Source of the DNA: Candidatus Enterousia sp.
GTDB taxonomy: Bacteria > Pseudomonadota > Alphaproteobacteria > Rs-D84
Reading direction: 5' to 3'
Assembly (NCBI GenBank): GCA_045613445.1
Contig: JAZLAZ010000027.1
Location: 674-64,673 of the forward strand
Length of the DNA: 64,000 bases
Below the pieces are notes generated by a model. The model did no database searches. It saw only the letters and a list, made by a program, of their open reading frames with translations, and was not told the DNA's origin. Positions 3,647 to 63,249 of the stretch are shown one piece after another. Both the position numbers and the translations under genes were made by a program. Each line of letters starts with the position of its first letter. Position 1 is the stretch's first letter.

Positions 3647-3650
3647 GACA

Positions 3651-3848
3651 CTAATCCGCTGGTGGTAATGGTGGGGTAGGTACATTAAACGAACCTGTTA
3701 CAGTATATTCTCCGGCCATTGTTTGTTTTGTATCTGCAGAAACACCGACACGCGTTTCGATAGCTTCGTTCACATAATTGGTAGACGGAATAGCTGCCCA
3801 AACAGGCAATACAAAAAACACCGCCAAAAATATGACGATAACACGCAT
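3651..3848 (-). CDS. Small secreted peptide, 65 aa (signal peptide plus ~40-aa mature part), copy 1
   Basis: ORF with a strong RBS (GAGGAAG 10 nt upstream of the ATG) and N-terminal signal peptide MRVIVIFLAVFFVLPVWA. Near-identical second copy at 4148..4345 within the tandem duplication. Confidence 0.6.
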   Translation of the reverse strand: MRVIVIFLAVFFVLPVWAAIPSTNYVNEAIETRVGVSADTKQTMAGEYTVTGSFNVPTPPLPPAD

Positions 3849-7943: not shown

Positions 7944-8030
7944 TGGTGGGGATAGTGGGACTCGAACCCACACGGTCGCAATGACCAAAGGATTTTAAGT
8001 CCTCAGCGTCTACCATTCCGCCATATCCCC
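7944..8030 (-). tRNA. tRNA-Leu(TAA)
   Basis: 87-nt cloverleaf folded by hand: acceptor stem GGGGATA/TATCCCC, GGCGGAATGGTAGACGC D-arm typical of tRNA-Leu, anticodon loop CTTAAAA, long variable arm, T-arm GTGGGTTCGAGTCCCAC, encoded CCA. Confidence 0.85.
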
Positions 8031-8045
8031 GAAGACTTACATGTT

Positions 8046-8121
8046 TGGTGGAGCTGATGGGACTCAAACCCACGACCTCTACGATGCGAACGTAGCGCTC
8101 TATCAACTGAGCTACAACCCC
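8046..8121 (-). tRNA. tRNA-Ala(CGC)
   Basis: 76-nt cloverleaf GGGGTTGTAGCTCAGTTGATAGAGCGCTACGTTCGCATCGTAGAGGTCGTGGGTTTGAGTCCCATCAGCTCCACCA. Carries the G3:U70 alanine identity pair, anticodon loop TTCGCAT, encoded CCA. Confidence 0.8.
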
Positions 8122-8129
8122 AAAAAGCA

Positions 8130-8216
8130 TGGTGGGCGTAAGAAGACTCGAACTTCCAAGGTATTGCTACCACTAGTACCTGAAACTAGCGCGTCTACCA
8201 ATTCCGCCATACGCCC
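8130..8216 (-). tRNA. tRNA-Leu(CAG)
   Basis: 87-nt cloverleaf: acceptor stem GGGCGTA/TACGCCC, GGCGGAATTGGTAGACGC D-arm, anticodon loop TTCAGGT, long variable arm, encoded CCA. Confidence 0.85.
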
Positions 8217-10861: not shown

Positions 10862-10893
10862 ATAAAAAATCCCCATTTTGGGGATTTTTTATT
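10862..10893. terminator. Bidirectional terminator hairpin of the AAAAAATCCCC..GGGGATTTTTT family
   Basis: AAAAAATCCCCATTTTGGGGATTTTTT, sitting between a plus-strand gene end and a minus-strand gene end. Confidence 0.65.
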
Positions 10894-12418
10894 TTTCAGA
10901 TATACATTTTTTATATTCATCTGGATTAGCCTTGGTCCAACATTGTTCATCCAACGACAGAATCGATTCGCTAACACCGACCAATTCACGCTGATTCAAT
11001 GGTGTTGCATCAACACATTGACCATCACTGTATACTTTACCAATTTCACATGTGATACACATACCATTCGCCCCCAGTCCCAAACGCTTTGGATGAATTG
11101 TTGCATCCGCAGATATTGCACAACTTACACATGTGTAATCACCGCTAATTTTTGGATCAGACGCGTATCCCATACCATCTTTACATACAAAAATTGTACA
11201 TGTTGCATCTGCGCTTGCATACAACTGATTGTATCTATCAGAACAAGATTTTGAACATATTTGTAATTCGTCACCTGTCTTCTGACTGCACGCAGAATTA
11301 CATTTGTCTGCAATCAGTGCATCTGTACCAGCTTCTTTTGTACGCCAATTCTTATATTCAAACTTATTGGTGTTTAATTCGTGAATTTTATTGTCGTACT
11401 TTGATCTATCAAAACCCGGACACAACAAATCCAAACCAGACAACTCAATTATTTTTGCCTGTTCCAATGCCGATTCATAGGCAGCTTTTTCAGTGTGACT
11501 GACATCCTGTACATCCGCCGTCTTTTGGCTGTATCCGATGCATCCACCATCATCACTATGTAAAAACTTTTCATTTGGACAATAATCTTTGGATTCTTTA
11601 CCAGTCCATGAAATCATTGGCCAACCTGTGTCAGCATAATTCTTGGCACTTGCCGCGCGAACAACCATTGGTTGTAATGTATATGTTACGCGCGCAATAC
11701 CATCTGTTTCAATATTTTTAATTGCCAGAACAACATCATGCTCTTGTGATTTCGACATTTTACGCAAGTCAACCTGTATACCACCAGAACACGCTGTATA
11801 ATTTCCATGAAAAAACATTGGAATACTGTTTTTTTGACCTGCGCCCTTCTTCAATGTTGCAACAGTTGAAGAATCTAATGGGTTTGCGTTTAAACCCGCT
11901 GCAATCTTTGCACGATTTTGAATTATTATGAAATCACTTCCATCACTATCAGGTTCTATTGCAGATGGGGTTGATGATGCACACTTATTACCATAATAAC
12001 CTTTTTCGCACAACCAAAAACAATTTTCGCCATTATCTTTATTGGCATCCGCCTTGGCAACATAGTTTGTAAATGGTGACTTTGTTATTCCGTTCCGATC
12101 TGCACCAACCGCAGTCTTACAGAATCTGTATCCATGATCATTCATTTCATGTGCAATCCAATACCATGCACCATATCCCAAATCCCCCTTACCAGACTCA
12201 GTAAAACTTGCCGCTAAATATTTACGCCATTTAAGATTTGTTTTAATATTTTCACTGCTGCCATCAAAACCAGCATCCGCACCACTACCTTTACATGTTG
12301 GATAACTGGCAGACACTTCCCATTTTGTACGATATGCAGCACCATCTTCTTTTGCAGCAAGGGCATCAGAAACAAATGAAATTGAAACCAACAAAGCAAC
12401 GAATGATATCTTATTCAT
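10889..12418 (-). CDS. Secreted cysteine-rich hypothetical protein, 509 aa
   Basis: Signal peptide MNKISFVALLVSISFVSDALA and about 30 Cys residues. Its start lies 4 nt downstream of the stop of the 823-aa paralog, so co-transcription is likely. Confidence 0.75.
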   Translation of the reverse strand: MNKISFVALLVSISFVSDALAAKEDGAAYRTKWEVSASYPTCKGSGADAGFDGSSENIKTNLKWRKYLAASFTESGKGDLGYGAWYWIAHEMNDHGYRFCKTAVGADRNGITKSPFTNYVAKADANKDNGENCFWLCEKGYYGNKCASSTPSAIEPDSDGSDFIIIQNRAKIAAGLNANPLDSSTVATLKKGAGQKNSIPMFFHGNYTACSGGIQVDLRKMSKSQEHDVVLAIKNIETDGIARVTYTLQPMVVRAASAKNYADTGWPMISWTGKESKDYCPNEKFLHSDDGGCIGYSQKTADVQDVSHTEKAAYESALEQAKIIELSGLDLLCPGFDRSKYDNKIHELNTNKFEYKNWRTKEAGTDALIADKCNSACSQKTGDELQICSKSCSDRYNQLYASADATCTIFVCKDGMGYASDPKISGDYTCVSCAISADATIHPKRLGLGANGMCITCEIGKVYSDGQCVDATPLNQRELVGVSESILSLDEQCWTKANPDEYKKCISEK

Positions 12419-12421
12419 TTC

Positions 12422-14893
12422 TTATTCCCCCTGAACATAATAACAAGTGTTATTTTCATAATACCCGCCAATCCATGCACATCTTTCTTGATGCCATTTT
12501 TCTGTAAATATACACTGATCTTTTTCCGCATCATACACTGCATATTCTTCGCCACCTTGGGCTTCACATTGAATTTGAACAGAATTTTGATAACAAGTAC
12601 CATACGATCCAGCAATTTTATCTGCACTTGCCCCAATTGCATCATAGAATTTCAATTCGGTTGCACCATTTAATGTTCTTGCACCATCAGAACCCGCTGA
12701 TCCCATATTACATACCTTCTTGGTCCAATCGCTGCCAGTCCCTGTTGCACCGGTATCTTCTTCACAAGTTGCATCGACCCATAAACCACCAAACTTATCA
12801 CATTCATCCGCCAACATTGTTCCCACTTCGGCATAAATTGTATCGACCAGTCTTGTAACAGTTGTATTCGGATCGATTAAAGTATCATTTAATGTACCAT
12901 CCGTGTTATTGACAGCACAATATACAGTCGCCCGTGAGTCAAAACTAGCGGCTAAATCCGCGGGTTTCATTGAACGACAGCCCCATGGATATTGATGTGA
13001 AGAATCTGACGATGCAGGCGCACATGTTTCACGAGCATACTTTGCCATCGCATCTGCGCAACCTTCTGCTATCTTGGTACTGTCAACTGTTGCAACATAC
13101 GCCAACAATTCCGATAATCCGCACTGTGTTGCATTTAAGACACGACCTTGATTATCAAAGTTACAATTTGCACCATTTCCATACAATGCAGCACAAGCTG
13201 CAACCTTGTCAGAACACATTGCACGCGCAGCATTGGCCGCAATTGCACCTGCAGACTGTGCAGATGTTGTATCAAAATCTTTTAATGCACCAGATTGTTT
13301 GTCATAACAATCACCCATTGTTGCAACGCAAGTCGATTTGACTTCTTCGATTTTTTCATCTTGAGCCTGGGCAATTTCGATAATTGCAGTACGTTTGAAT
13401 TCTGTCCAAACTGTATCAGCAATATCACGACAAGAATCCAATGCTGTTGTTGCAAACATCTTTTTCGAATCTAAGAATTTATTGAATTCTGTATTATTAG
13501 TCAATACATCACCAAATGAATCAGAACCTGAAGAATACAGATTTATCATTTCTGTCAATTTGAACAACAATGGGGAATAAATTGCTTCACCTGTTGTCTG
13601 ATTGATATATTGCCCAGAATAGTCCAAACAACGGTTATAATCCGAACCACATGCAGTATCTTGCAACATTGCACTGCGAACCTTGGAAATACATTCGTTC
13701 ACATCTGCCGAATTATGTGCACGATATTCTTCCAATCGAGCATCGCGCAACATTTTTTCCGCTTCGCGTACAGTGTTCATAATTGCTTGACGCTGAGTAT
13801 CCAACTTCTTTTCATACAAATTACAATCTTGAGTAATCATCAAACTGTATGAACTGGTTGCCATATTCAATATTGCATTTGAAGAACAAGAATCAGCAAT
13901 AATTTCTAAGCATTGTTTGTTTGATTCATTGTACAATTGCTGTCCCGACATTTCTGTCATATTTGGACCACCACGGCTGGAACCGCCACCAAATATGGAA
14001 TCAACAGAACCACCACCCCATAAATCATCCATGTCGATCGAAAAGCCATTTGTTAAACTGCTAAAATCCAAGGTATTTAATTTCTTTTCTTCTGTTTTTT
14101 TCTTTTTACCAGACAACAAATCACCAATCTCATTCAAAACAGATTGCGCGCCACTTACATCTTTTTTAATTGCAGCTTCGCCAACAGTTGCTGTATACAT
14201 TGCCTTTACTTCTGCAGCAGTTTTATCAACGGCATTCAAATTATTATCTTCAAAGCGCTGTAATAATGTTTTTACTTCTTCAAACATAGCTTCGGTTTCT
14301 TGAAACTGAGTAAACTTTTCACTGCAATAACAGCGGCGAAAAGTATCGTTTGCGTTTGCACAAAACTGATCCATACATGTCGCATAAGAATCACGACACT
14401 GTGCATATCCACCACCAATCTTAGAAATATCGTTAAATACAGCTGTTGCACGCGCCATATTTGCTACACGTGCCATCCCCATATTTGAAACAGATTTAGA
14501 AGCACTGCGCGCATTGTTTTTCATCCCAACAACTGCGCTACGCACCGGATTCGCCTTGGTTGCACTGCGAACAGTTGTCGTTGCCGAACGATTCGACACA
14601 GTTGCATGACGCGTAACATCGCGCCCCGTTCTGGCCACAGTTGATTTATTTGTCGCACCACGCGCTGTAACACTACCAGAATTACGGGCTTTGACAGCAC
14701 CACGGCTGACCACAGGTGCCGACGAACCATCACCACGCGTCATAACCCTGGACGATGAATTTCGCACTGCATTCACATCAGCAGAAACTGCACTGCGCGG
14801 ATTTGGCGCCTGATCTGCAACCCCAGATGTCGCACACAAACACATTGTCAAAACCGCAGGAAACCGATAAAAATGTTTAAACATGGCCTTCAC
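12422..14893 (-). CDS. Large secreted cysteine-rich protein, 823 aa, paralog B of 8355..10808
   Basis: Signal peptide, then a basic Ser/Arg/Thr-rich low-complexity region, then YAQCRDSYATCMDQFC..FRRCYCS. Collinear similarity to paralog A across most of the length (e.g. DCNxx..L..AR.E..R..HNS..N.CI..V.SA.L....CG..Y..CLD). Confidence 0.8.
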   Translation of the reverse strand: MKAMFKHFYRFPAVLTMCLCATSGVADQAPNPRSAVSADVNAVRNSSSRVMTRGDGSSAPVVSRGAVKARNSGSVTARGATNKSTVARTGRDVTRHATVSNRSATTTVRSATKANPVRSAVVGMKNNARSASKSVSNMGMARVANMARATAVFNDISKIGGGYAQCRDSYATCMDQFCANANDTFRRCYCSEKFTQFQETEAMFEEVKTLLQRFEDNNLNAVDKTAAEVKAMYTATVGEAAIKKDVSGAQSVLNEIGDLLSGKKKKTEEKKLNTLDFSSLTNGFSIDMDDLWGGGSVDSIFGGGSSRGGPNMTEMSGQQLYNESNKQCLEIIADSCSSNAILNMATSSYSLMITQDCNLYEKKLDTQRQAIMNTVREAEKMLRDARLEEYRAHNSADVNECISKVRSAMLQDTACGSDYNRCLDYSGQYINQTTGEAIYSPLLFKLTEMINLYSSGSDSFGDVLTNNTEFNKFLDSKKMFATTALDSCRDIADTVWTEFKRTAIIEIAQAQDEKIEEVKSTCVATMGDCYDKQSGALKDFDTTSAQSAGAIAANAARAMCSDKVAACAALYGNGANCNFDNQGRVLNATQCGLSELLAYVATVDSTKIAEGCADAMAKYARETCAPASSDSSHQYPWGCRSMKPADLAASFDSRATVYCAVNNTDGTLNDTLIDPNTTVTRLVDTIYAEVGTMLADECDKFGGLWVDATCEEDTGATGTGSDWTKKVCNMGSAGSDGARTLNGATELKFYDAIGASADKIAGSYGTCYQNSVQIQCEAQGGEEYAVYDAEKDQCIFTEKWHQERCAWIGGYYENNTCYYVQGE

Positions 14894-38037: not shown

Positions 38038-40155
38038 CTACATAGGTGGGAAACATTCCCCGGTACTTTCTGCACAACAGGCCCGTTCACCATCTGGGAA
38101 CAAAATAAATTCTTCACCTGTACAGCAACCATACATATCAGGCGGATTTCCATCAGAACATGTTTCTTCTTCGACAATCAGTTCATCGGTATATTCTGTA
38201 ACAATCTCAGGCTTATCCATTGTAACAACAGGATTTTGCACAACAGTTTCTGTTTCATATTCTGGTGATGCAACAAACATTTCATCAGAACGAGAAGCCG
38301 CACCATATGCAGGTTTTGAAGCCAAAACCTCATCTTCTGTTGGAACATATGGTTTTTCTTCAACTGGCGCTTCTGCCATTGGTCCAATCACAGGCCCCAA
38401 AGTCTCCAATTCTATAAACGGACTAACGATTTCTGGTGCATCATTTATCGGTTCTTTTTCAATAATAACAGGCTCTGTTTTTTGCTCTGTCACGGGTACA
38501 ATTTCTGCTTCCACAGCAGATTCAATCACTGGTTCTATAACTTCTACTACAACTGGTTCAATTTCTGGCACTATCACAGGTTCAACGGTCACAGATTCAA
38601 CCACAGCCGGTTCAACCACAACAGGTTCTACATCAACGACAGATTCAACCTCTGTAACAACGGGTTCTGTTTTAGCCCCCAACACAGGCATTGTATCATT
38701 CATAGACCGTTGATACACCCACAATGTAAAAACAGACAATATAATCAAAACACCCAACAAAACATAATATAACATTGTCGGTTTAACACGATTTACATCA
38801 TTTCCAACAGATGTCACAGCCATTGGTACTTCGTTTGTAATTGGTGACACAGGACGAAAATCCGATGAAACAGGCGCAGGCTCAATATCATCTGATGCAT
38901 ATTCAGGCGCAACCACAGGTTCCAGCACATCCTGAACAGGTTTCTGTTCCTGCATTACAACCGGTTCTGATTTTTTTTGCCAAACTTCATCTGTCTGAAC
39001 ATCAGCCATTGGAATCGGTGTAAACCCATCAAAAAGCGGTGTAGTTTCAATTTCTTCTTGAACATCGACATGTACATCATCTGGGCTAAAATCGGTTGGT
39101 GGCGTAAAAGACAATGGTTGAACAAATGTTTCTTGTTCAGATACCTCAACATCTGGCACATCCACAGGCTCAATCATCGGCACAACTGGGGCAGGGGTAC
39201 TTTCCTCAACCACAGGTGCAACAACAGGCACAACCGGTTCCGGCATCACTGCTGGTGCATTAAAATCAATTGGTTTGAACGCAATTTCTTCATCGATAAT
39301 ATCCGGATTAGTATCAAACAGCGGTTTAACTTCTTCGGCCATCGTTTCTGCCTTTGTTTCAATAATTTCAGTTTTTGTTTCTGTGATTTCTGCCGGCACA
39401 GGTGCAGATTTCGCAACAACAATTTCCGCCGGTGCAGGCACAACAGGCAAATTGATATTCAGCTTATCCAATATTGACTGTGCAACATCAATTTCATCTT
39501 GCGCAGCCGCCAGTCTGTTCTGAGCATTAGTTAAACGTTTTTTTGCCCGTTTCAGCTTATCATTCACAGAATCAATCTGGGACTCAATACGCAAAATCTT
39601 GGCAGCAGACTGTTTTGTAGGTTCTTTACCAATCGCACGCTTCGCATCTGTCAGCTTTTGACGCAAAGTCTTTATACGATTTTGCAATTCGATAATTTTT
39701 TCATTTGTCTTGTCAATCGTTTCACGACTGCGACTGACAGTAAGTTCCGCAGCCCCCAAGCGTTCAATCGCCGCGCGTTTAGCTGCGACATGACGAAATT
39801 CAACCAACGCATGCAACGGCTCATTTAACACATCATCTGATTCATATGCATGAATCAAGTCATCGTATTGTGCCAGTCCTGCATACTCAATATCCAGTTT
39901 TTGATATTTATTATCCTTCTTTGGGCGAACTGTTTCTAAATCGACACCATAGTCATTTTCCAGAATATCATCCCACTTGCGGTCCCCAACAGGATTTATA
40001 ACCAACAATACATTCGGTTTAATATCGTCAACCAAGAAATCTATGATGAACACCAATTTATTATCAGCGTCATAATACGCCCGAAAAGAATATCCTGCGA
40101 TACTATAATCGACTGATGTCAATGGTTGAAAAAATGTTTCTCTCTCGTTTGTCAT
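38038..40155 (-). CDS. Bitopic membrane protein, 705 aa: cytoplasmic N-domain plus coiled coil, one transmembrane helix, long Pro/Val/Glu-rich low-complexity periplasmic region, Cys-rich C-terminal knot
   Basis: Coiled-coil segment (IELQNRIKTLRQKLTDAKRAI..), transmembrane helix LYYVLLGVLIILSVFTLWVY, EPVVV-type repeats, C-terminal CSDGNPPDMYGCCTGEEFILFPDGERACCAESTGEC. Its start is 16 nt downstream of the gcrA stop. Confidence 0.75.
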   Translation of the reverse strand: MTNERETFFQPLTSVDYSIAGYSFRAYYDADNKLVFIIDFLVDDIKPNVLLVINPVGDRKWDDILENDYGVDLETVRPKKDNKYQKLDIEYAGLAQYDDLIHAYESDDVLNEPLHALVEFRHVAAKRAAIERLGAAELTVSRSRETIDKTNEKIIELQNRIKTLRQKLTDAKRAIGKEPTKQSAAKILRIESQIDSVNDKLKRAKKRLTNAQNRLAAAQDEIDVAQSILDKLNINLPVVPAPAEIVVAKSAPVPAEITETKTEIIETKAETMAEEVKPLFDTNPDIIDEEIAFKPIDFNAPAVMPEPVVPVVAPVVEESTPAPVVPMIEPVDVPDVEVSEQETFVQPLSFTPPTDFSPDDVHVDVQEEIETTPLFDGFTPIPMADVQTDEVWQKKSEPVVMQEQKPVQDVLEPVVAPEYASDDIEPAPVSSDFRPVSPITNEVPMAVTSVGNDVNRVKPTMLYYVLLGVLIILSVFTLWVYQRSMNDTMPVLGAKTEPVVTEVESVVDVEPVVVEPAVVESVTVEPVIVPEIEPVVVEVIEPVIESAVEAEIVPVTEQKTEPVIIEKEPINDAPEIVSPFIELETLGPVIGPMAEAPVEEKPYVPTEDEVLASKPAYGAASRSDEMFVASPEYETETVVQNPVVTMDKPEIVTEYTDELIVEEETCSDGNPPDMYGCCTGEEFILFPDGERACCAESTGECFPPM

Positions 40156-40170
40156 TTACAAACCCCTGTC

Positions 40171-40776
40171 TTATTTCTTTTTTGGTGGTGCAAATTGATA
40201 TGCCTGCTTGCAGTGTTCATAACAATAAGGCTTTCCCACAAAAACCGTTTCCCCACAGAAATGAAAATGTTCAGAATCAGGATCCCCGATTGGCCAACGA
40301 CACTGATTAGGCTTCAAGTTAGCCATTTCTAGTGAATGTTGAATAATACGCTGATGAACAGCCAAACTCTTGGCATCATTTCTAACAGCAGTCACTGTTT
40401 TTTTTGTATTTTCTTTTGGTTCTTCAACTTTTTTAGTCGCTGTCGTTTTTTTAACAGTACTTTTTTCTGTCACTTTTTCTACAGGTTTCACCGCCGCTTT
40501 CTTCGTGACAGATTTTACAGTCGTTTTCTTTTCAGCTGTTGCAGATTTTGCAGTCTTCGCTGTACTGGCCACTTTTTTTACGATTCCAGTCTTTTTTTCT
40601 GGGATTTCGACAGTTGATGCACCACCCGCCTTGGCATTCCAACCAAGTCTGTTTAATTTACCCACAATTGCATTTTTTGACATCCCCAGTCTTTTACCAA
40701 TTTCAGATGTAGACAGTCCTTTGCCAGTCAATGCTTTTAACTTTTTTAATGTTGCGTTATCCCAACCTTTGCTCAT
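40171..40776 (-). CDS. gcrA: Cell-cycle transcriptional regulator GcrA
   Basis: N-terminal GcrA DNA-binding signature W..ATLKKLKALTGKGLSTSEIGKRLGMSKNAIVGKLNRLG. C-terminal CRWPIGDPDSEHFHFCGE...GKPYCYEHC..AYQ. Lys/Ala/Thr-rich linker. Confidence 0.88.
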   Translation of the reverse strand: MSKGWDNATLKKLKALTGKGLSTSEIGKRLGMSKNAIVGKLNRLGWNAKAGGASTVEIPEKKTGIVKKVASTAKTAKSATAEKKTTVKSVTKKAAVKPVEKVTEKSTVKKTTATKKVEEPKENTKKTVTAVRNDAKSLAVHQRIIQHSLEMANLKPNQCRWPIGDPDSEHFHFCGETVFVGKPYCYEHCKQAYQFAPPKKK

Positions 40777-40849
40777 TTTACAAAACCCTTAGATTACATT
40801 ATAATATAATTGTAACATAATTCCGATTCGAAACGCAAGGGAGAAAAAT

Positions 40850-41308
40850 ATGATTTCTTATATCTTTTTCATTATTTTACTAGCTTTTGCGGCATTTTTG
40901 TCTATTAAAATATCAATTGCTGACCTGCGTCGCAGAATCATACCAGACGCATACTTATTTCCATTGATGCTGATTGGGTTGACTTTGATATCATTTTATT
41001 CTTTTCCAACAAACATTCAAACAGCAACTATTGGCGCTATATTTGGCTATACAATGGCGGCCATTATCGGAATCATATTTGAAAAAACAAAGAAATCTAA
41101 CGATGCACCGATTGGCATGGGCGACCTAAAATTATTAGGGGTAGGCGGGATATGGCTGGGCACAAATGGACTGGCAATTGCACTGATCATCGCATGCATT
41201 TCCGGCATGATATGGTCAAGACAAAAACAACAAAAATATATCCCTTTTGCACCATTCTTTATATTTGGGGGATTTTTATCTTTTATTATAAATCTGTTTT
41301 TGTTATAA
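40850..41308 (+). CDS. A24-family prepilin peptidase (CpaA/TadV-like), orphan: no pilus-assembly genes nearby
   Basis: 152-aa polytopic ORF with the two Asp motifs (ISIADLRRRIIPD and GMGDLKLLG) characteristic of Flp prepilin peptidases. Confidence 0.7.
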   Translation: MISYIFFIILLAFAAFLSIKISIADLRRRIIPDAYLFPLMLIGLTLISFYSFPTNIQTATIGAIFGYTMAAIIGIIFEKTKKSNDAPIGMGDLKLLGVGGIWLGTNGLAIALIIACISGMIWSRQKQQKYIPFAPFFIFGGFLSFIINLFLL

Positions 41309-41330
41309 TCAATCAAACAGGGAACCGGAA

Positions 41331-43511
41331 GTGAGAAACAGTTTCAATAAATTTCTTTGTATTTTCATTGGATTATCTGCGCTTTGTGCAGTTGCACATG
41401 CAGTAACGCCATTTTCAAAATATGGCGTGATTCAGAATGTTCAGAATTATTCTACGAACCCGTTTTGGAATCCAAATTCACCATATCATAATACAAATAT
41501 GCCACAACCGGTATATGCCACTGGTCCAGATGTAAACACAGATGAATGTCAACGCATCGTAACCAGTTTGGTCACAGTTCAATGTATGAACATGAACAAC
41601 TGTATTGATGCACAAATCAGCGATATACGACCTGCAATTATGTTGCAGTTATCGCGCATGACTGGTGGCAATTATGCAACTGCATGCGGTGGCTATTTAG
41701 ACGGTGCGTTTAATGATTATGTTGCACAATACGCAAATGCTGCGCCACATGGTGCTGCAACAGCATTTCCAAATGCAGTCATGCCAAATCCAAACGCATC
41801 TGGCACAGCAATCCAAATTCCAAATCCATTGGCACCCCAAGCACCTGATTGGGCAACCGACATGATGGAACGCAAACAGGAATTACAAGAATTACAATCA
41901 TTAAACGGTGCTGGCAATTCTGGTGTATATGCTGCAAATTTTCCAACCACATATGCCGATTTATCTTTTTCAGAACGCATGGAAAACGCCCAGGCTGGAT
42001 ATGAACCATATAAAGACACCAAGGTGTTTCATGAAATAAAAATTGAAGACGAAAAAACATATCTCAATCGCATAAATCGACCAGCAACCACAACAACAAA
42101 TAATTCCGCAACAACAAATAATTCTACAACAACAAACAACGCCCAACCATCACCGGTTGACACGGGTAGCAATACACCAGCAACACCGGCAGAAACCAAC
42201 ACTCCCGCATTGATAACCGAAGATATTCCTGACGAATTCGAAGCCTTACTGCCATGGTATGGCATTTTAATTGTAAAAGCAGGCAGTCTTGACAGATATG
42301 CCAGCCTTGATTTACCAATTGTATCGACAGAATATATGAAATCGCATCGCGATGAATTTTTTCCCGCAAATTCAGACAGGGCACTTGGACTCAGACGTGG
42401 CTGTACACACTCTAATCATACCGCGCACGACAAAGATGTTATCAATCGTGCTGCGCATAAAACAATGGGCGAACAAGACAGTTTTTGGTCAGGCAGTGAT
42501 TTTTATGTATATGATGGCCAAGATGTATATTGGGGATGGGCAACAATTGTTGGCGAAGTTGTATTGGCATTGCTAACCATGGGGATTAGTGCCGAGGCCA
42601 GCGCCGCAGCAGCTGCAGGACAGGCCGCATCTGCAGGACAGGCCGCAGTCGCTGGTGCACAAACAGCACATGGTGCTGTTGCTGCTGCAAGGGGGGTACG
42701 TATATCATCAAATGCATTAAAAATATTCGAATCATCCAGTTCTGCAATCAAGGCTGTAAAACTGACAAAAAATGGAAGCAAAATAGATGACGCTATCAGA
42801 TTGGCCAAAGCTGCAAAAAGCGGCCAAGATACTGCTGCGATAAAGTCGCGTGCCGATGCAGTAAAAGCATTGGCGGACGCTGGCATTACCGTAAAAAAAG
42901 GTCCAAACGCAAATACATTGAAAGCTATTGGTAGAGCATTAGCAACAGCAAAATCTACCGTCAAACCACTAACATGGACATCATCACTGTACAGACCATG
43001 GCGCTTGGTTGCAGCTGGGGTAAAAAACATAAAACCAACAACATCTAAATATCTGGGACGTGGTGCAACATGGGCAACCCGTTTCAAAACGCTGGGGGTT
43101 GTTGGTGGTGCGGTTGGACTAAACTATTTCGGACGTGAACTTCTAAAAGGATTTGGTTACAGTTCTGCTGTGTTACAAGATCCGACAACTGGTGATGTTG
43201 GATTTAACAGTTTTGGATTATTATCCGACGACAATGTCGAAGGACGCGAAAATGTCATATCACATGGCACATGGGTACAATTCGATGCCGTGGGCGGTGC
43301 CAACGAAGACGATGCATTGAACGAGGCAATGCGATTTGCTGAAGAATTGACCAAAGACATCAATTCTATCAATGCATCCGATCCATTATGCGATGTTGAT
43401 ATCTATGTTGTACAACCAGCAATCAGTAACCCAGAAAAAATACCTGGCGCCAGATCAATATATTATATATTGATGAATGACGACATGAAATTAAAAGTTC
43501 GTACAAAATAA
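41331..43511 (+). CDS. Secreted hypothetical protein, 726 aa, tandem paralog 1
   Basis: GTG start with an AGGGAA RBS. Signal peptide MRNSFNKFLCIFIGLSALCAVAHA, Thr/Asn-rich linker, internal hydrophobic segment WATIVGEVVLALLTMGISA, Ala/Lys-rich region. C-terminal domain ..PLCDVDIYVVQPAISNP...YYILMND.. is shared with 43512..45185. Confidence 0.75.
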   Translation: MRNSFNKFLCIFIGLSALCAVAHAVTPFSKYGVIQNVQNYSTNPFWNPNSPYHNTNMPQPVYATGPDVNTDECQRIVTSLVTVQCMNMNNCIDAQISDIRPAIMLQLSRMTGGNYATACGGYLDGAFNDYVAQYANAAPHGAATAFPNAVMPNPNASGTAIQIPNPLAPQAPDWATDMMERKQELQELQSLNGAGNSGVYAANFPTTYADLSFSERMENAQAGYEPYKDTKVFHEIKIEDEKTYLNRINRPATTTTNNSATTNNSTTTNNAQPSPVDTGSNTPATPAETNTPALITEDIPDEFEALLPWYGILIVKAGSLDRYASLDLPIVSTEYMKSHRDEFFPANSDRALGLRRGCTHSNHTAHDKDVINRAAHKTMGEQDSFWSGSDFYVYDGQDVYWGWATIVGEVVLALLTMGISAEASAAAAAGQAASAGQAAVAGAQTAHGAVAAARGVRISSNALKIFESSSSAIKAVKLTKNGSKIDDAIRLAKAAKSGQDTAAIKSRADAVKALADAGITVKKGPNANTLKAIGRALATAKSTVKPLTWTSSLYRPWRLVAAGVKNIKPTTSKYLGRGATWATRFKTLGVVGGAVGLNYFGRELLKGFGYSSAVLQDPTTGDVGFNSFGLLSDDNVEGRENVISHGTWVQFDAVGGANEDDALNEAMRFAEELTKDINSINASDPLCDVDIYVVQPAISNPEKIPGARSIYYILMNDDMKLKVRTK

Positions 43512-45185
43512 ATGATATCACGAATCGTTTGTCTTTTTATCTCAATATGTTTACTGCCATCATTATCGCATGCGGTTCAGATCGAAACACCATGTGCAAC
43601 GCAAATTTACGCATCAAAACTGGCACAAACTGTAAGTACAATTGACGAATCCGATGACGAAGAAGTTATCAAACAATGGATTTATTCTATATTTACAAAC
43701 AAAGATACTGTATCCGATATCTTAAAATGTCCAGAATTAAATATCTCTGATAACGCTACGATAAAATTTACCCCCATAAAATATGTATTTCCAATGGGGC
43801 GCGAAGTCGTCATAAATTATGAAACCCAACCAAAAATATTAAAACAACGATTGGCACTGGCAGACAAGCGCGACTTGCCACCTTATGACGCAAACCCACG
43901 CATCGGCGAAATGGGGGATGGAACAATATGGACAAATACAGATCCTGCATGGTATGCAATAATGGTTGTTGAATCTGGTGCATTAAACAATTTTGTTGGT
44001 GAACATAAAAACAACACCATATCAGTTCAATATATACATGATAATATTGACGCCCTGTACCCAAAAAATCGTGGTTGTACAACAAAACACGCACTGGCCC
44101 GTGATTCCAAACCAATCAATCGTGCTGTAAAACAGGCTGTTGATATTGAAAATGATTCAAATGACTATTATGTGGCAGGTGATGCAAATCTGGCATGGAT
44201 TGGATATGCAGAAATCGCAATGGATGTTGCAATAACTGTTGCAACCATGGGCGGTGGCGTATTGATATCAGGCGCCACAAAATCTGCCCGTGCATCACGC
44301 GCATTAAAGGGCATGGCCACATCACTGAAACAATTACGCAATCTGGATTCTGTTCGTGATTACATAAAATATACATCACGCGCAGCACAACTGACAGATG
44401 AAATAAAAAAGTTAGACAAAGTTACCGATGCTGCAAAAATCGCAGAAAAAACAGCCGAACTTGATAAATTAAAAGATGCTATCAAGGGTTTAGAATCAAT
44501 CGATGATGTAAAAAAATATAAGCAGACATCCGAAACCTTTTCAGATTTGAATAAATATCGCAGAACTTTGAACGGAATCAAAGCGTTAAAACAGGCACAG
44601 CGTGGAAATATAATCGCACGCGGCGTCAAGGTTGCAAAAAGTGCAAACGCCGCCATGTCAGGCAATAAATTGATTGCAAAAGGTGCAAAACTAGGTCGCG
44701 CCAGCAAAGTGTCAACCCGTGTAAACGATTGGCTGTTTCATTCAACATTGAAAAACATTGGCATGCTGGGAAAAATGGAAACATTTGGTGGTGCAATTTA
44801 CGGTGGCATACAATTTATTGGTGGCATGATGTATGACTTTACAGAAACCAGCACAGGCGAATTTACAAACGATATTCAATTTCAACCTTTGTTATTATTA
44901 TCCGCAGACGATTTGCAAGGCGGTCAAGCCGATAAAATAAATTATGGAATGTGGTTGATGTGGTCTGGGGATTCGACCAATCCCGCCGATGATGACGCAG
45001 CATATTTGCAAGCAATGGACTTTGCTGCAAAATTCCACGAAGATTTAATGGATGTTCAAAATAACACAAACCGTCCATGTAATGTTGATATATATGTTGC
45101 AAAGCCTATCATACGCAACCCAGGTTCGGCCAATCCAGAATTATACTATCTGATTATGAACGATACGCCATGGACAACAAAATAA
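43512..45185 (+). CDS. Secreted hypothetical protein, 557 aa, tandem paralog 2
   Basis: Starts 1 nt after the stop of the previous gene. Signal peptide MISRIVCLFISICLLPSLSHA. Shares RGCT..H....INRA...hydrophobic segment, Lys/Ala-rich region and the C-terminal RPCNVDIYVAKPIIRNP..LYYLIMND with 41331..43511. Confidence 0.75.
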   Translation: MISRIVCLFISICLLPSLSHAVQIETPCATQIYASKLAQTVSTIDESDDEEVIKQWIYSIFTNKDTVSDILKCPELNISDNATIKFTPIKYVFPMGREVVINYETQPKILKQRLALADKRDLPPYDANPRIGEMGDGTIWTNTDPAWYAIMVVESGALNNFVGEHKNNTISVQYIHDNIDALYPKNRGCTTKHALARDSKPINRAVKQAVDIENDSNDYYVAGDANLAWIGYAEIAMDVAITVATMGGGVLISGATKSARASRALKGMATSLKQLRNLDSVRDYIKYTSRAAQLTDEIKKLDKVTDAAKIAEKTAELDKLKDAIKGLESIDDVKKYKQTSETFSDLNKYRRTLNGIKALKQAQRGNIIARGVKVAKSANAAMSGNKLIAKGAKLGRASKVSTRVNDWLFHSTLKNIGMLGKMETFGGAIYGGIQFIGGMMYDFTETSTGEFTNDIQFQPLLLLSADDLQGGQADKINYGMWLMWSGDSTNPADDDAAYLQAMDFAAKFHEDLMDVQNNTNRPCNVDIYVAKPIIRNPGSANPELYYLIMNDTPWTTK

Positions 45186-45258
45186 TTCAAATAGATTCCC
45201 ATTGTATTTTTTATAATTTTTAACTATAATGAATATGAGAAAGGCAAGGGGTTAAAAC

Positions 45259-45576
45259 ATGAAAAAGATTTTAGCGTCTACAATTGCTGTAATAATGACA
45301 ATTGCATCTGCAAATGCATATCAGGTTTTATCATCCAAAGAACTGGGTAAAAACGATGCAAAGAATCAAAATATTGTTGTAAAATGCACAACTGATGCGG
45401 GTCGCATATCGAATCAAACATGTTCTTTACGCAGATACGCAAAATGTACCGGCACCGGGAATAACAAGCGTTGCAGCGGCTGGCAACCATGGCGTGATTT
45501 GCGTAATCCATCCACAGCACACAGCAGTTGGCAATCTGCCGCATCTGCATGTTGTCGTGCAAAAGGCTTAAGATAA
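45259..45576 (+). CDS. Small secreted Cys-rich protein, 105 aa
   Basis: Signal peptide MKKILASTIAVIMTIASANA. Eight Cys in the mature part. Confidence 0.6.
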   Translation: MKKILASTIAVIMTIASANAYQVLSSKELGKNDAKNQNIVVKCTTDAGRISNQTCSLRRYAKCTGTGNNKRCSGWQPWRDLRNPSTAHSSWQSAASACCRAKGLR

Positions 45577-45607
45577 TAAAAAAACACCCACTTGGGTGTT
45601 TTTTATT
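45577..45607. terminator. Bidirectional terminator hairpin (AAAAAAACACCCACTTGGGTGTTTTTTATT)
   Basis: Sits between convergent gene ends at 45576 and 45617. Confidence 0.65.
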
Positions 45608-45616
45608 AAATCTTTT

Positions 45617-45874
45617 TTATTCAATCCACATCAATGCACGACCTTCAACAGGCTGAACTTTTTCTGGTTTACCCAATGGTACACTATCAAATCTGTTATC
45701 GTTACCAGCAGCCACAGAACGCGCATCCGTACCAACCGGCAAGCGTTCAACATTTACCGTACCCTTGGTTAAATTGCTAGCATTGCTGACATACGACACA
45801 GTTGGCACACTGCCGACCTGTGCAAATGCGCAAAAACAAAACATGCAGAAAAACACCATTGATACAAAACGCAT
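45617..45874 (-). CDS. Small secreted protein, 85 aa
   Basis: ATG at 45874 with a strong AAGGAG RBS at 8-nt spacing. Signal peptide MRFVSMVFFCMFCFCAFAQ. The ORF track's earlier start lacks an RBS. Confidence 0.6.
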   Translation of the reverse strand: MRFVSMVFFCMFCFCAFAQVGSVPTVSYVSNASNLTKGTVNVERLPVGTDARSVAAGNDNRFDSVPLGKPEKVQPVEGRALMWIE

Positions 45875-45940
45875 ATTCTTTCTCCTTGAACTTATGTTCA
45901 TAATCATAACATATTTTGCTACCCAAATCCAACATTTTTT

Positions 45941-51745: not shown

Positions 51746-51776
51746 AAAAATCCCCCAAACTGGGGGATTTTTTTAC
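51744..51776. terminator. Bidirectional terminator hairpin AAAAAAATCCCCCAAACTGGGGGATTTTTTT, 31-nt core identical to the copy at 53844
   Basis: Shared between the rpiB 3' end (plus strand) and the 3' end of the minus-strand repeat-protein gene. Confidence 0.7.
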
Positions 51777-53521
51777 ATTGGCACAATCGTAGTTATATCA
51801 TAAACATGATAAATCATATCGTTATATTTTATTTTTAGTTTATTTGTACTATCCCGCATGATATTTGTTTCAATTGGTGTCATTGCCCCATAGTACAAAG
51901 CATCATCAACAACGACATGTAATGCAGGTTCAGTTGTTTTATACGACAACAAACCCACCGTATCATCATTTACATGTAACTTTCGCAAATTCCCACGATA
52001 ACACATACGAGCATCTGTTGCGCCAAGAACAGAATTCGGAAAGTCATCAGGGCACGGCGCACACGCAACTTTTTTGTTCCAATCTTGTTCAAACCCAGTA
52101 ATATACTGATAATATCTTGGCGGACATTTGGTAGTCAAACTAGTCGCATTAAAAATACCACCCATCACCCCTAATTTATTGTCATTATTTAACCCAGCGA
52201 ACAAAGTATCTGGCACAAAACCAGACAAATTTGAACATCCACCGAACATATATCCGAACATTTCAACATCTAAGGTTCCAGAAATATTTCCAAACAATTT
52301 TTCAGGTAATTTTGTCAAACCAGAACAATAATAAAAAGTTGAATAAAACATACTTTTTGCAATTCCACTTACACCGGCAAACAAATTTTCTGGTATCGAC
52401 TTTATCCCAGAACATCTGCTAAAAGTTCCTTTGAACATTGAATCTGCTGCACCATACACTCCTGCAAATAAGTTTTCTGGTATTGCGGTTATGTTTGTAC
52501 ATCCATTAAAAGTATTCTCAAACATCCCAATACTTGAACCACTAATTCCCAAAAATAAATTCTTTGGAATTTCAGTCAGTTTTGAGCATCCATAAAAGGT
52601 ATGTGAAAATGCAGCACGTGCATTACCTGTTACATGAGAAAATAAATTTTCAGGAATTTTTTTCAAATTTGAGCACCCCGAAAAAGTAGCACAAAACAAC
52701 CATTCCCCCGCTACTGTAATACCAGCGAACAGATTTTCTGGGATATTTTCTAATTTACTGCACCCATAAAAAGTATAGTAAAACACAGAATTATTTATAC
52801 CCGTAATACTTGCAAATAATCCTGTTGGCACATTTACTAAACTAGTACATTCTGCAAATGTATACGAAAACAAACTATAACCAATGCCATGAACACCAGA
52901 AAACAAATCTGCGGGCACAGTTGTTAAACCCGTACAACCACGAAAAGTTTCTTTGAACATCGCATCACCAATATTTACAATAAAATTTGGGAACAAATTT
53001 TCTGGCAATTCCTTCAACCCAACACAGCCAGCAAATGCTTGCGCAAACATATTGCTAAATCCATAATAATCACCCGCAAACAAATTTTTTGGAATCGATA
53101 CAAGATTTTTACAATTTTGAAAAACACCGTTAAATCGGACTGGCAAATATGTACCACTGCTATTACGTAATGTCGGAAACAACGCTGTCAAAGAGCCCTC
53201 TAAACGACTGATATTCAAATTATTCGCAAACGATATTGACGCTGTAGCAGAAGTATATCCAGTTGCAACACCATCAAATCCAATTATATACTCATTGGCA
53301 ATGTCATATATATGCGAATACACTGTTTGAATCGTATCTGTTCTATTTATCGTTTCAACAGTTCCATCTCCCCAATCCACCGTAAAAAAACCTTGTGCCG
53401 ACATACTAAAACTGAATTCCACTGTATCAGGTGTGGTCACAACCGTAAACTTCGGCTTTATTGACTCCGCATGTGCAACAGAACATAGCATAATTAAACA
53501 TATACATAAAATTTTTATCAT
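51773..53521 (-). CDS. Secreted PKD-like plus BspA-type LRR-like repeat protein, paralog 2
   Basis: ATG at 53521 with a GGGGGG RBS; the TTG at 53548 is the alternative. Signal peptide MIKILCICLIMLCSVAHA, VDWGDGTVE..YSHIYD PKD-like signature, then ~12 repeats of FxxTFxGCxxLxxIPxNLFAGIxG. Confidence 0.75.
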   Translation of the reverse strand: MIKILCICLIMLCSVAHAESIKPKFTVVTTPDTVEFSFSMSAQGFFTVDWGDGTVETINRTDTIQTVYSHIYDIANEYIIGFDGVATGYTSATASISFANNLNISRLEGSLTALFPTLRNSSGTYLPVRFNGVFQNCKNLVSIPKNLFAGDYYGFSNMFAQAFAGCVGLKELPENLFPNFIVNIGDAMFKETFRGCTGLTTVPADLFSGVHGIGYSLFSYTFAECTSLVNVPTGLFASITGINNSVFYYTFYGCSKLENIPENLFAGITVAGEWLFCATFSGCSNLKKIPENLFSHVTGNARAAFSHTFYGCSKLTEIPKNLFLGISGSSIGMFENTFNGCTNITAIPENLFAGVYGAADSMFKGTFSRCSGIKSIPENLFAGVSGIAKSMFYSTFYYCSGLTKLPEKLFGNISGTLDVEMFGYMFGGCSNLSGFVPDTLFAGLNNDNKLGVMGGIFNATSLTTKCPPRYYQYITGFEQDWNKKVACAPCPDDFPNSVLGATDARMCYRGNLRKLHVNDDTVGLLSYKTTEPALHVVVDDALYYGAMTPIETNIMRDSTNKLKIKYNDMIYHVYDITTIVPM

Positions 53522-53548
53522 ACACCCCCCGATATAATGGTGGGGCAA

Positions 53549-61162: not shown

Positions 61163-61660
61163 CTATTCATCCATACCAACCGTCGCCAGAATCGATACTC
61201 TAAAATTATTATAATTATCTTTCATTCCATCACTTGCACAATATTTCGCACAGGTTTCGTTACACTTATTTGAATAAGTCCATATATTTACCCACTTTGA
61301 TTCAAACGGATGTATAATTTTACACCAGCATCTGTTACCATCATCACGGCCCTGAAAATTCGCATTTGTATCTGCACCATTTTTCGCATACGGACAACCA
61401 GCATATTGTGAAAAAACACCATTCACTATATTTGGACATTTTGTTGTATCTGAATCCAGCGATATGCACGAAGAAATCCCCGACACCGTCCCAAAACCAT
61501 TATAAAACACACGCCATTCATATGAACCATTATCATACGAAACAGATGTCGGTGCCTTTGGCGCCAAACCAATAACAACATTATTATCACGCGCACACAC
61601 AGTTGCGCCGTTCGCGCAAAAACAATATAAACTCAATAAGATAATCATTATTCTTTTCAT
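61163..61660 (-). CDS. Small secreted Cys-rich protein, 165 aa, CWC-motif family member 1
   Basis: Signal peptide MKRIMIILLSLYCFCANGA. Mature part has ~12 Cys, including GNRCWCKI. Confidence 0.7.
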   Translation of the reverse strand: MKRIMIILLSLYCFCANGATVCARDNNVVIGLAPKAPTSVSYDNGSYEWRVFYNGFGTVSGISSCISLDSDTTKCPNIVNGVFSQYAGCPYAKNGADTNANFQGRDDGNRCWCKIIHPFESKWVNIWTYSNKCNETCAKYCASDGMKDNYNNFRVSILATVGMDE

Positions 61661-61681: not shown

Positions 61682-62158
61682 TTACCAAACCGCCTCAAAA
61701 AAATTATCTCGGAATACATAGCTTTCAATCAAACTATCTGTACATAAACGCGCACAATTCGAAACACATGCATCAACATCATCATACACACGGACAAACA
61801 TTGGATATGTTGTCGCCGGCCGCAACATTGAACACCAGCAATTTTTACCACTATTATCACCAGCCACAACTATACCAGATGTATTTACATCATACATATC
61901 ACCACCGCCTGCAAATTCCGAACACGACACAATACCACGAATATTGCGCTGAGCACCGTACATTGTTGCCAATGTGTCATAATTTACATCAATACGCCAA
62001 TTCATACCATCAATAGACGGAACACCATATTTAACCACCCCATCTGCATCCTTGTCCAATACAATCAAGATCGAATAATCAGCCATACATATTTTCGCAT
62101 CCGCAACACCCGAACAACAAAAATAACAAGCCAACAAACAAAAATGCTTCATTTTCAC
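61682..62158 (-). CDS. Small secreted Cys-rich protein, 158 aa, CWC-motif family member 2
   Basis: GTG start. Signal peptide MKMKHFCLLACYFCCSGVADA. Contains GKNCWCSM and a collinear Cys pattern with member 1. Confidence 0.7.
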   Translation of the reverse strand: MKMKHFCLLACYFCCSGVADAKICMADYSILIVLDKDADGVVKYGVPSIDGMNWRIDVNYDTLATMYGAQRNIRGIVSCSEFAGGGDMYDVNTSGIVVAGDNSGKNCWCSMLRPATTYPMFVRVYDDVDACVSNCARLCTDSLIESYVFRDNFFEAVW

Positions 62159-62165
62159 CCTCTCT

Positions 62166-62942
62166 CTAATTCACCGTATGATACAGCGCATCATTATATT
62201 TAACATTTATCGCCCCCACAGCAGATTCCGGCAACATGTTCACATAACATGTTTTCGACGAACCAGATCGTATATTTAACGATGGCGTCGTCAATTTGCT
62301 GTTATACACCGGTGCAATAACACCTGTACTGGTCCGCAAATAGCGCAACCCCGAAACATTACACAATGCAACACAGTTACCTAAATAATTCATTTCATAG
62401 CCCACAGCACACATACGCAACACAATCATATTATCTGGAACATCCACATATGGATACGACCAAACATACATTTGCTGCTCATCCGACACATGCGAACCAT
62501 CATACCCACCCAAAACACTCAAACCAGACGGACATTCTGTATCATCAGAGGCCAACCGAACCGTATCCGCCGTAAACATATCACGATAACCCGACGGACA
62601 CAATTCGGCATTTTCAGTATACTTCACACATTCACTACCATTATAAAACCCATCATCACACACCACATTATCTTCAGCCATTAGCATATACACACCTTTG
62701 CCTTGGGCCGCCGCTGTGGCACACTTTCCATCAAACGACACCCCACTGTGATAAATTACGCGACGCGTATAACCAGTCATACACTTATCATTATCATACC
62801 GTTGACATCCATATGTTGCAGTACCATCAGAATCACTGGTCACCATTGTTGGAAACCCGCCATCACACAGCACCGTATCGGGCAGGGCGCCATTCGCCCC
62901 ACACATATACACACAACAAAAACAACAGACAATATATTTCAA
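62166..62942 (-). CDS. Secreted Cys-rich protein, ~259 aa from the proposed TTG start; third member of the tandem cluster
   Basis: An internal TTG gives the signal peptide (M)KYIVCCFCCVYMCGANGA, which resembles the CFCANGA signal-peptide end of member 1. The ORF track's 63119 start would add 58 non-signal residues. The start is uncertain by a few nt. Confidence 0.55.
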   Translation of the reverse strand: MKYIVCCFCCVYMCGANGALPDTVLCDGGFPTMVTSDSDGTATYGCQRYDNDKCMTGYTRRVIYHSGVSFDGKCATAAAQGKGVYMLMAEDNVVCDDGFYNGSECVKYTENAELCPSGYRDMFTADTVRLASDDTECPSGLSVLGGYDGSHVSDEQQMYVWSYPYVDVPDNMIVLRMCAVGYEMNYLGNCVALCNVSGLRYLRTSTGVIAPVYNSKLTTPSLNIRSGSSKTCYVNMLPESAVGAINVKYNDALYHTVN

Positions 62943-63249
62943 CCCAACACCCCCTACACATAAAAAAAAACCACCGCGACTTATCAGGTGGTTGGAGTTG
63001 GTAACAATAGCAAGAATTGCATGCTTATTCAATATATTCGCATACTCCAACCAACAGTTGGAATATGTTTTTACGTCTTTTCTGACGCTTGCTATATAGT
63101 GGGTTACCAGCCCAATCAACAGAACACCTGCAGACCCTATTAGTATATCACATCACTTTAACACATGTCAAACACATACATAAAAACACCTAGACTTTTG
63201 TTCCTATTTTCGTATAAAATTATCCCAACATAAATCCAGGGAAACTATT

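Follow-up and report, generated by a model that had tools for sequence, protein, structure and literature searches.

Prepilin peptidases of the TadV/CpaA type are small proteins of about 150 amino acids (aa) with a multi-pass membrane layout and two catalytic aspartates, the second one lying in a GxGD motif, and they carry no N-methyltransferase domain. In Tad (type IVc) pilus loci such a peptidase stands with CpaF/TadA, TadB/C, CpaC/RcpA, CpaB, CpaE and the pilin. A peptidase with all these features of TadV/CpaA, referred to below as the A24 peptidase, is encoded in a 64-kb stretch of Candidatus Enterousia sp. DNA (contig JAZLAZ010000027.1; Alphaproteobacteria, lineage Rs-D84), the whole of which we call the window. 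The peptidase is the only component that this locus shares with Tad/type IVc loci. Unlike TadV/CpaA, it has no Flp pilin, TadE/F pseudopilin or tad/cpa gene in the window, and it appears to be co-operonic with Sec-exported proteins that are not pilins. These are encoded by two large open reading frames, ORF2 and ORF3, and a small one, O4. By its sequence the module is an order-specific operon made largely of protein families without known relatives. We tentatively read it as a lineage-specific assembly of Rs-D84 that would be embedded in the envelope at the peptidoglycan and the membrane and to which the A24 protease would be functionally coupled; this is our leading interpretation, held with somewhat less than even confidence.

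Rs-D84 (Candidatus Enterousia) comprises gut Alphaproteobacteria with genomes of ~0.75–1.0 Mb, without flagella, respiratory chain or standard transporters, for which a partner-dependent life has been suggested as probable (PMC12306168). A scan of one genome per species gave ORF3 relatives in 225 genomes, and most of the 80 loci retrieved bear the label Candidatus Enterousia or uncultured gut Alphaproteobacteria; a homolog search with the A24 peptidase returned Rs-D84 orthologs only. The proteins of the window were then placed in 82 non-redundant related loci by tblastn and blastp. ORF3 is present in all 82, O4 in 78, the A24 peptidase in 76, GcrA in 75 and a 705-aa protein in 74, the misses being contigs that end too early. 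The order and orientation of these genes are constant, i.e. the 705-aa protein and GcrA on the minus strand, then the A24 peptidase, an N-module protein (described below), a variable middle gene, ORF3, sometimes a GH108 muramidase, and O4. Genes outside this block are not conserved among the related loci: thyA and tig, upstream in the window, are found in 19–24 of the 82, and LpxB in 52 at a variable distance. The A24 gene lies directly 5' of the module in 76 of the 82 loci, the contigs of the remaining six being too short, and the median gap from its stop to the next gene is 22 bp (75 genomes). The earlier note had considered the linkage between peptidase and module suggestive but unproven; it is robust and extends across the order. 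The gcrA gene and that of the 705-aa protein belong to the block by synteny, and their functional tie to the module is putative. ORF3 is 52–68% identical across the loci sampled, a range comparable with those of GcrA and LpxB, while O4, at 63–86%, exceeds all other genes of the block; judging from these values, ORF3 and O4 evolve at the slow pace of housekeeping genes.

The four genes of the module occupy 40850–45576 of the window on the plus strand, at the coordinates that the earlier note had given (Table 1). The A24 gene and ORF2 are separated by 22 bp, and ORF3 starts on the base that follows the stop of ORF2 (gap of 0 bp). A promoter-like site is located 45 bp 5' of the A24 start, inside the 73-bp divergent gap shared with gcrA, and a hairpin that appears terminator-like in both directions follows O4. 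No convincing terminator was predicted between the two. Because of the upstream promoter match, the hairpin after O4 and this lack of a convincing internal terminator, the genes from the A24 peptidase to O4 look like one transcription unit, with a predicted promoter and a predicted terminator at its ends, as judged by consensus scans. The hairpin is shared with a 96-aa secreted ORF (45617–45907, minus strand) that converges on O4; this ORF is found in just 7 of the 82 related loci and so lies outside the conserved block.

Table 1. Features of the module and of its conserved neighbours (positions in the window).
Feature	Position	Strand	Description
705-aa protein gene	38038..40155	-	Member of the conserved block
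gcrA	40171..40776	-	Divergent neighbour, member of the conserved block; Pfam PF07750, E = 4e-27
Promoter-like site TTTACA-17-TATAAT	40777..40805	+	11/12 positions; consensus match only
A24 peptidase gene	40850..41308	+	152 aa; TadV/CpaA size class
ORF2 gene	41331..43511	+	726 aa, GTG start; fusion of signal peptide, N-module, Thr/Asn linker and paralog core
N-module of ORF2	41403..42080	+	aa 25-250; begins FSKYGVIQNVQNYSTNPFW; 4-Cys helical bundle
ORF2 paralog core	42222..43508	+	aa 298-726; homologous to ORF3 aa 147-557
ORF2 hydrophobic helix	42525-42593	+	aa 399-421, after aromatic cluster
ORF3 gene	43512..45185	+	557 aa; family member conserved universally
ORF3 hydrophobic helix	44193-44270	+	aa 228-253; carries E234 and D238; marginally hydrophobic
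O4 gene	45259..45576	+	105 aa, secreted, six Cys
Hairpin with A-run and T-run flanks (AAAAAACACCCAAGTGGGTGTTTTTT)	45579..45604	.	Between convergent O4 and 96-aa ORF

The A24 peptidase scores 55.6 bits against Pfam PF01478 (cutoff 26.5; E = 7.8e-15) and has five hydrophobic segments in a multi-pass layout. Its two aspartate motifs, which the earlier note had read as those of a prepilin peptidase (ADLRRRIIPD with D25, and IGMGD92 as the GxGD motif), do not vary among 76 A24 orthologs, and the catalytic residues are intact. No NCBIfam model matched the peptidase at E <= 0.1 and a PDB profile search with it gave nothing significant. The absence of tad/cpa or Flp companions was likewise borne out: no tad/cpa gene was seen by eye among the window ORFs of at least 140–150 aa (not all of which were run against Pfam), nor any Flp pilin, CpaF/TadA ATPase, TadB/C platform protein or CpaC/RcpA secretin in the locus, and the precomputed Pfam lists of annotated relatives contain no tad/cpa family within +/-10 kb.

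Two expressions, G-x4-E-[YFW] and G-[FMILVA][TSA][LIV][ILVMP]E with a hydrophobic stretch behind them, were used to search for substrates. The six frames of the window contain neither an Flp-type (G/XXXXEY) nor a type IV prepilin site with such a stretch, and the five matches obtained in 1.59 Mb of related loci were all judged by eye to be due to chance. The cluster proteins all carry ordinary Sec signal peptides; a G-x4-E/F-Y-like site after the signal peptide of either large protein, for which the earlier note had proposed to look, is not present. The glycine that precedes the hydrophobic helix of ORF3 is not conserved, and inspection revealed no glycine adjoining the transmembrane helix of the 705-aa protein. 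Gly427 of ORF3, nearly invariant, precedes a weakly hydrophobic Gly-rich segment and might, speculatively, be the sole conceivable non-canonical cleavage site.

ORF2 and ORF3 are clear paralogs, as had been noticed from their shared motifs. BLASTP aligns ORF2 309–717 with ORF3 147–551 (~410 residues, 27% identity, E = 4e-33), and hhalign relates the ORF2-core family to the ORF3 family with a probability of 100% (E = 1.1e-39). Both contain the segments RGCT...INRA and P(L/R)C(D/N)VDIYV..P.I.NP...YY(I/L)(L/I)MND, and C189 and C523 are invariant in both; the described succession of an aromatic cluster, a hydrophobic stretch and a basic helical region is also seen in the two proteins. The two genes do abut, but their description as a simple pair has to be refined, ORF2 being a chimera in which a signal peptide and an N-module of ~225 aa are joined by a Thr/Asn-rich linker (aa 251–297) to the paralog core. 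The GTG start of ORF2 at 41331 is supported because the signal peptide at the N-terminus and the FSKYGVIQNVQNYSTNPFW stretch are both conserved among its orthologs; the database copy P0121 (670 aa, 100% identical) begins at Met57, thus without the signal peptide (window 41331–41498).

ORF3 consists of a Sec-type signal peptide, an acidic N domain (aa 25–228), the hydrophobic helix, in which the glutamate and the aspartate are conserved, a basic helical hairpin (aa 251–420), a Gly-rich segment (aa 421–442) and an acidic C domain (aa 443–557). Across the family the net charges of the N domain, the middle and the C domain are about -12, +20 and -16 respectively. Two AlphaFold models were made, with a predicted local distance difference test score (pLDDT) of ~70, and the acidic N domain of ORF3 was modelled at a pLDDT >90. 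An out-in-out membrane topology agrees with the charge pattern, the basic +20 region following the positive-inside pattern of a resident membrane protein, and the weak hydrophobicity fits a protein that would insert conditionally. Both end domains may be argued to be extracytoplasmic from C189 and C523 and from a C-terminal fusion: in the ORF3-like protein P0216 the C-terminus is a GH108 domain (Pfam 2.4e-12; PHROG endolysin 2e-20). Two other proteins, P0210 and P0225, have a Cys-rich extension at the C-terminus. The pore-forming role that had been proposed for these proteins is one possibility, but a membrane-anchored protein with a bipartite periplasmic domain fits at least as well because of the charge pattern, the resemblance of the hairpin to Get1 and the C-terminal fusions.

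The N-module recurs at 45–69% identity in other proteins of Rs-D84, where it stands alone (~300 aa) or is joined to GH108 and PG_binding_3, to Flg_new repeats or to unassigned regions. Most genomes have a stand-alone N-module protein of ~300 aa after the A24 peptidase, then a separate middle gene, then ORF3. The tandem of paralogs is real in the window but it is not the general design: a second core (core2) occupies the middle slot in only ~12 loci, either fused as in the window or separate, and the tandem is restricted to a sub-lineage, the other loci having non-homologous middle genes. The latter form at least three further groups (33, 13 and 9 loci) with a signal peptide, Gly/Ala-rich hydrophobic segments and often a Cys-rich C-terminus. 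These groups were considered as homologs of the core and rejected (hhalign probability <= 7%), the shared DIDMY/DVDIYV motif being anecdotal.

The middle slot is in itself a hypervariable site between conserved genes (L007–L086, e.g. L065:8810–9997, L001:8515–10008 and L020:8750–9805), at which at least four mutually unrelated secreted families with glycine-zipper-like segments swap.

In 23 of 77 loci (~30%), ORF3 and O4 are separated by a gene for an N-module–GH108 muramidase. The possible link of the module to peptidoglycan comes from this gene and from the GH108 fusion of P0216. O4 was confirmed as a Cys-rich secreted protein: its Sec-type signal peptide is variable, whereas the mature part of 85 aa is nearly invariant and contains six invariant cysteines.

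As the earlier note had said of the large proteins, no family could be recognised. For ORF2, ORF3, O4 and the N-module, Pfam, NCBIfam, PHROGs and PADLOC contain no significant match, and PDB profile searches with the ORF3 family and O4 did not yield one either. With Foldseek the best E value against PDB was 0.38, far from significance; the queries were full-length models, which may mask matches at the level of domains. A profile search of 1.84 billion representative proteins produced 184 matches, all of them members of the own family or fragments. A 2055-aa repeat protein (P0310) was tried as a relative of the ORF3 family and dismissed as a spurious low-complexity match. When 83 members of the family were scanned against Pfam, only weak, sub-threshold matches to CHD5 (Get1/WRB) appeared, in 10 of the 83 (best E = 3.8e-4). 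On sequence grounds, three or more new protein families are defined: ORF3/core, the N-module and O4.

According to the envelope-assembly interpretation, ORF3 and the paralog core of ORF2 would be exported by Sec, their acidic N- and C-terminal parts residing outside the cytoplasm and possibly being joined through C189 and C523. The segment in the middle, i.e. the marginal helix, the basic hairpin and the Gly-rich segment, would loop via the inner membrane into the cytoplasm, or would insert on demand. The N-module proteins, O4 and, where present, the muramidase would join ORF3 and the core in the assembly. The A24 protease would cut one of the components of this assembly at a non-canonical site; alternatively, it would mature a protein encoded elsewhere. 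A plausible use would be contact with surfaces or between cells in bacteria that are poor in transporters and probably dependent on partners. In a bolder version, which we consider improbable, the protease would have been recruited to a pilus-independent envelope machine. Its substrates would be Sec-exported proteins that insert into the membrane and are not pilins (those of the middle slot or the ORF3 family), cleaved at a non-canonical glycine; together with the disulfide-rich O4 and the muramidase these would form an organelle that contacts or taps partner cells.

Several results weigh against an assembly of this kind coupled to the peptidase. No cluster protein has a class III (prepilin-type) signal or a conserved glycine before a strongly hydrophobic stretch, and the link between the peptidase and a substrate in the cluster is unsupported beyond gene order. 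Gene order itself overstates functional coupling when taken alone, since gcrA is equally syntenic and probably unrelated. As regards the membrane, AlphaFold confidence falls below 50 exactly in the marginal hydrophobic segments. Their insertion energies, roughly estimated, are ~+2.8 and +4.4 kcal/mol, to be compared with -3.3 to +1.6 for the helices of the A24 peptidase, and the second, Gly-rich segment is too weakly hydrophobic for a transmembrane helix. Finally, tblastn detected no GH108 in the window.

The same signal peptides and the same synteny of gcrA, a gene without plausible role in the module, would be expected if the peptidase were unrelated to its neighbours, i.e. if it matured Flp, competence or pseudopilins encoded elsewhere while ORF2, ORF3 and O4 were separate lineage-specific envelope proteins. 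Reduced genomes often pack unrelated genes into shared transcription units, which also speaks for this explanation. Yet 75 genomes retain the same-strand junction of 22 bp amid reshuffled flanks, a terminator inside the unit is not predicted, and the only published survey reports type IV pili for another lineage and not for Rs-D84 (PMC12306168), an indirect argument limited to what its authors looked for. We regard an unrelated peptidase as a rather doubtful but serious alternative. It is unlikely, to a greater degree, that the module is an offensive set, bacteriocin-like or of two membrane-damaging components, in which hidden hydrophobic or glycine-zipper helices would enter a partner's or prey's membrane, the muramidase would breach the wall and the N-module, as a shared domain, would deliver or anchor interchangeable C-terminal payloads. 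Marginal hydrophobic helices with acidic residues are what one expects of conditionally inserting helices; the signal peptides and Gly/Ala-rich hydrophobic segments common to the unrelated middle-slot families, the alternative fusions of the N-module to the core, GH108/PG_binding_3 or Flg_new repeats, and the proposed partner-dependent lifestyle (PMC12306168) point the same way. However, ORF3 and O4 are universal, each is present once in the block, and they show the conservation of housekeeping genes rather than that of toxins engaged in an arms race; no immunity-like gene co-varies with the module, the structural matches are non-significant and limited to helical hairpins, and the +20 region behaves like that of a resident membrane protein.

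That the module is the remnant of a phage cassette for lysis or tails (an endolysin together with membrane proteins), or was domesticated from one, appears very improbable. GH108 is a common endolysin family, which the PHROG match of P0216 recalls, and long Lys/Ala-rich helices with hydrophobic segments occur in tape-measure-like proteins. Against this, tblastn of ORF2 and ORF3 found no match in 50,697 phage records or 72,556 plasmids, PHROGs gave no match for the A24 peptidase, ORF2 and O4 and only weak matches to unnamed families for ORF3 (E 0.017–0.039), and the best Foldseek E value against BFVD was 0.09, not significant. No phage gene is adjacent and the position beside gcrA is fixed (75 of 82 loci, with ORF3 relatives in the 225 species genomes), so that a phage or plasmid origin of the module is largely refuted.

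If the A24 protease does act on proteins of the cluster, the substrate range of bacterial prepilin peptidases would extend beyond pilins. Rs-D84/Enterousia bacteria are widespread in human and animal guts, with genomes below 1 Mb and a life thought to depend on partners (PMC12306168), and a block kept in essentially every member despite such tiny genomes is a leading candidate for an envelope or contact function that would define the lineage. Even if the protease is unrelated, the domain boundaries, conserved residues and fusion partners of the new families are now defined.

Of the two conserved neighbours, the 705-aa protein contains a coiled coil in the cytoplasm, a single strong transmembrane helix that follows RPVSPITG...KPT, a periplasmic part rich in Pro, Glu and Val, and a conserved Cys-rich C-terminus (C.DG..PD..GCC.GE...CC...ECFPPM); its searches gave no family match, only coiled-coil noise. 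The rest of the window, assigned by eye, is alphaproteobacterial housekeeping (secA, dnaE, ruvB, argS, tig, thyA, lpxA/B, murJ, leuS), with a tRNA cluster at 7944–8216 (minus strand; Leu-TAA, Ala-CGC, Leu-CAG). Three large Cys-rich secreted proteins without Pfam match are encoded at 8355–10808 (plus strand), 10889–12418 and 12422–14893 (both minus strand); the Cys-rich proteins of 817 and 823 aa are paralogous (BLASTP 2e-55, 31% over 448 aa) and share CxxxYxTCMDQFC...RRCxCS. Cys-rich secreted proteins of small to medium size, none of them with a family match, are encoded in a row at 61163–61660, 61682–62158 and 62166–63119 (all minus strand), the first two being paralogous (BLASTP 2e-08). The secreted proteins encoded at 2015–3685 and 51773–53548 (minus strand) are made of repeats F.G(C)..L..IP..LF, and one of these repeat proteins has a sub-threshold match to a BspA-type leucine-rich repeat (LRR_5, 9.5e-06). 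Outside the window, some relatives have a 973-aa Cas9-like gene (HNH, RuvC) ~9 kb downstream of the module (L001:20670–21671; L002), which shows that a type II CRISPR nuclease is retained in some of these tiny genomes.

Beyond pilus loci, the module recalls four described systems. With the bipartite toxins of the ClyA family (XaxAB/YaxAB) it shares tandem paralogous genes and long helical hairpins with a hydrophobic segment. The likeness does not extend to a significant match in sequence or fold (XaxA Foldseek E = 3.7), and, unlike these toxins, the proteins of the module bear Sec signal peptides, contain globular N and C domains that are conserved, and show a housekeeping-like conservation, their paralogy being limited to a sub-lineage. 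Get1/WRB (Pfam CHD5) is laid out as a transmembrane helix, a basic coiled-coil hairpin and a transmembrane helix, and a member would be expected to have three transmembrane helices flanking the coiled coil, whereas the ORF3 family has one clear hydrophobic helix, matches below the cutoff over the hairpin only and has no ATPase partner. This resemblance probably reflects composition or architecture and not homology, in agreement with the superposition of the hairpins. Muramidases of the GH108 type, known from export or as endolysins, may be tied to muramidase-dependent secretion. In ~30% of the relatives a GH108 gene, with or without PG_binding_3, lies within the block, and unlike the known GH108 muramidases the block version bears a Sec signal and an N-module. 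Lastly, bacteriocins of the colicin/pesticin type likewise combine a conserved, partly disordered N-module with alternative C-terminal payloads, either a membrane-active domain or a muramidase; unlike them, the module proteins have signal peptides, show no sequence similarity to them and come with no identifiable immunity gene, so that the likeness is one of architecture only.

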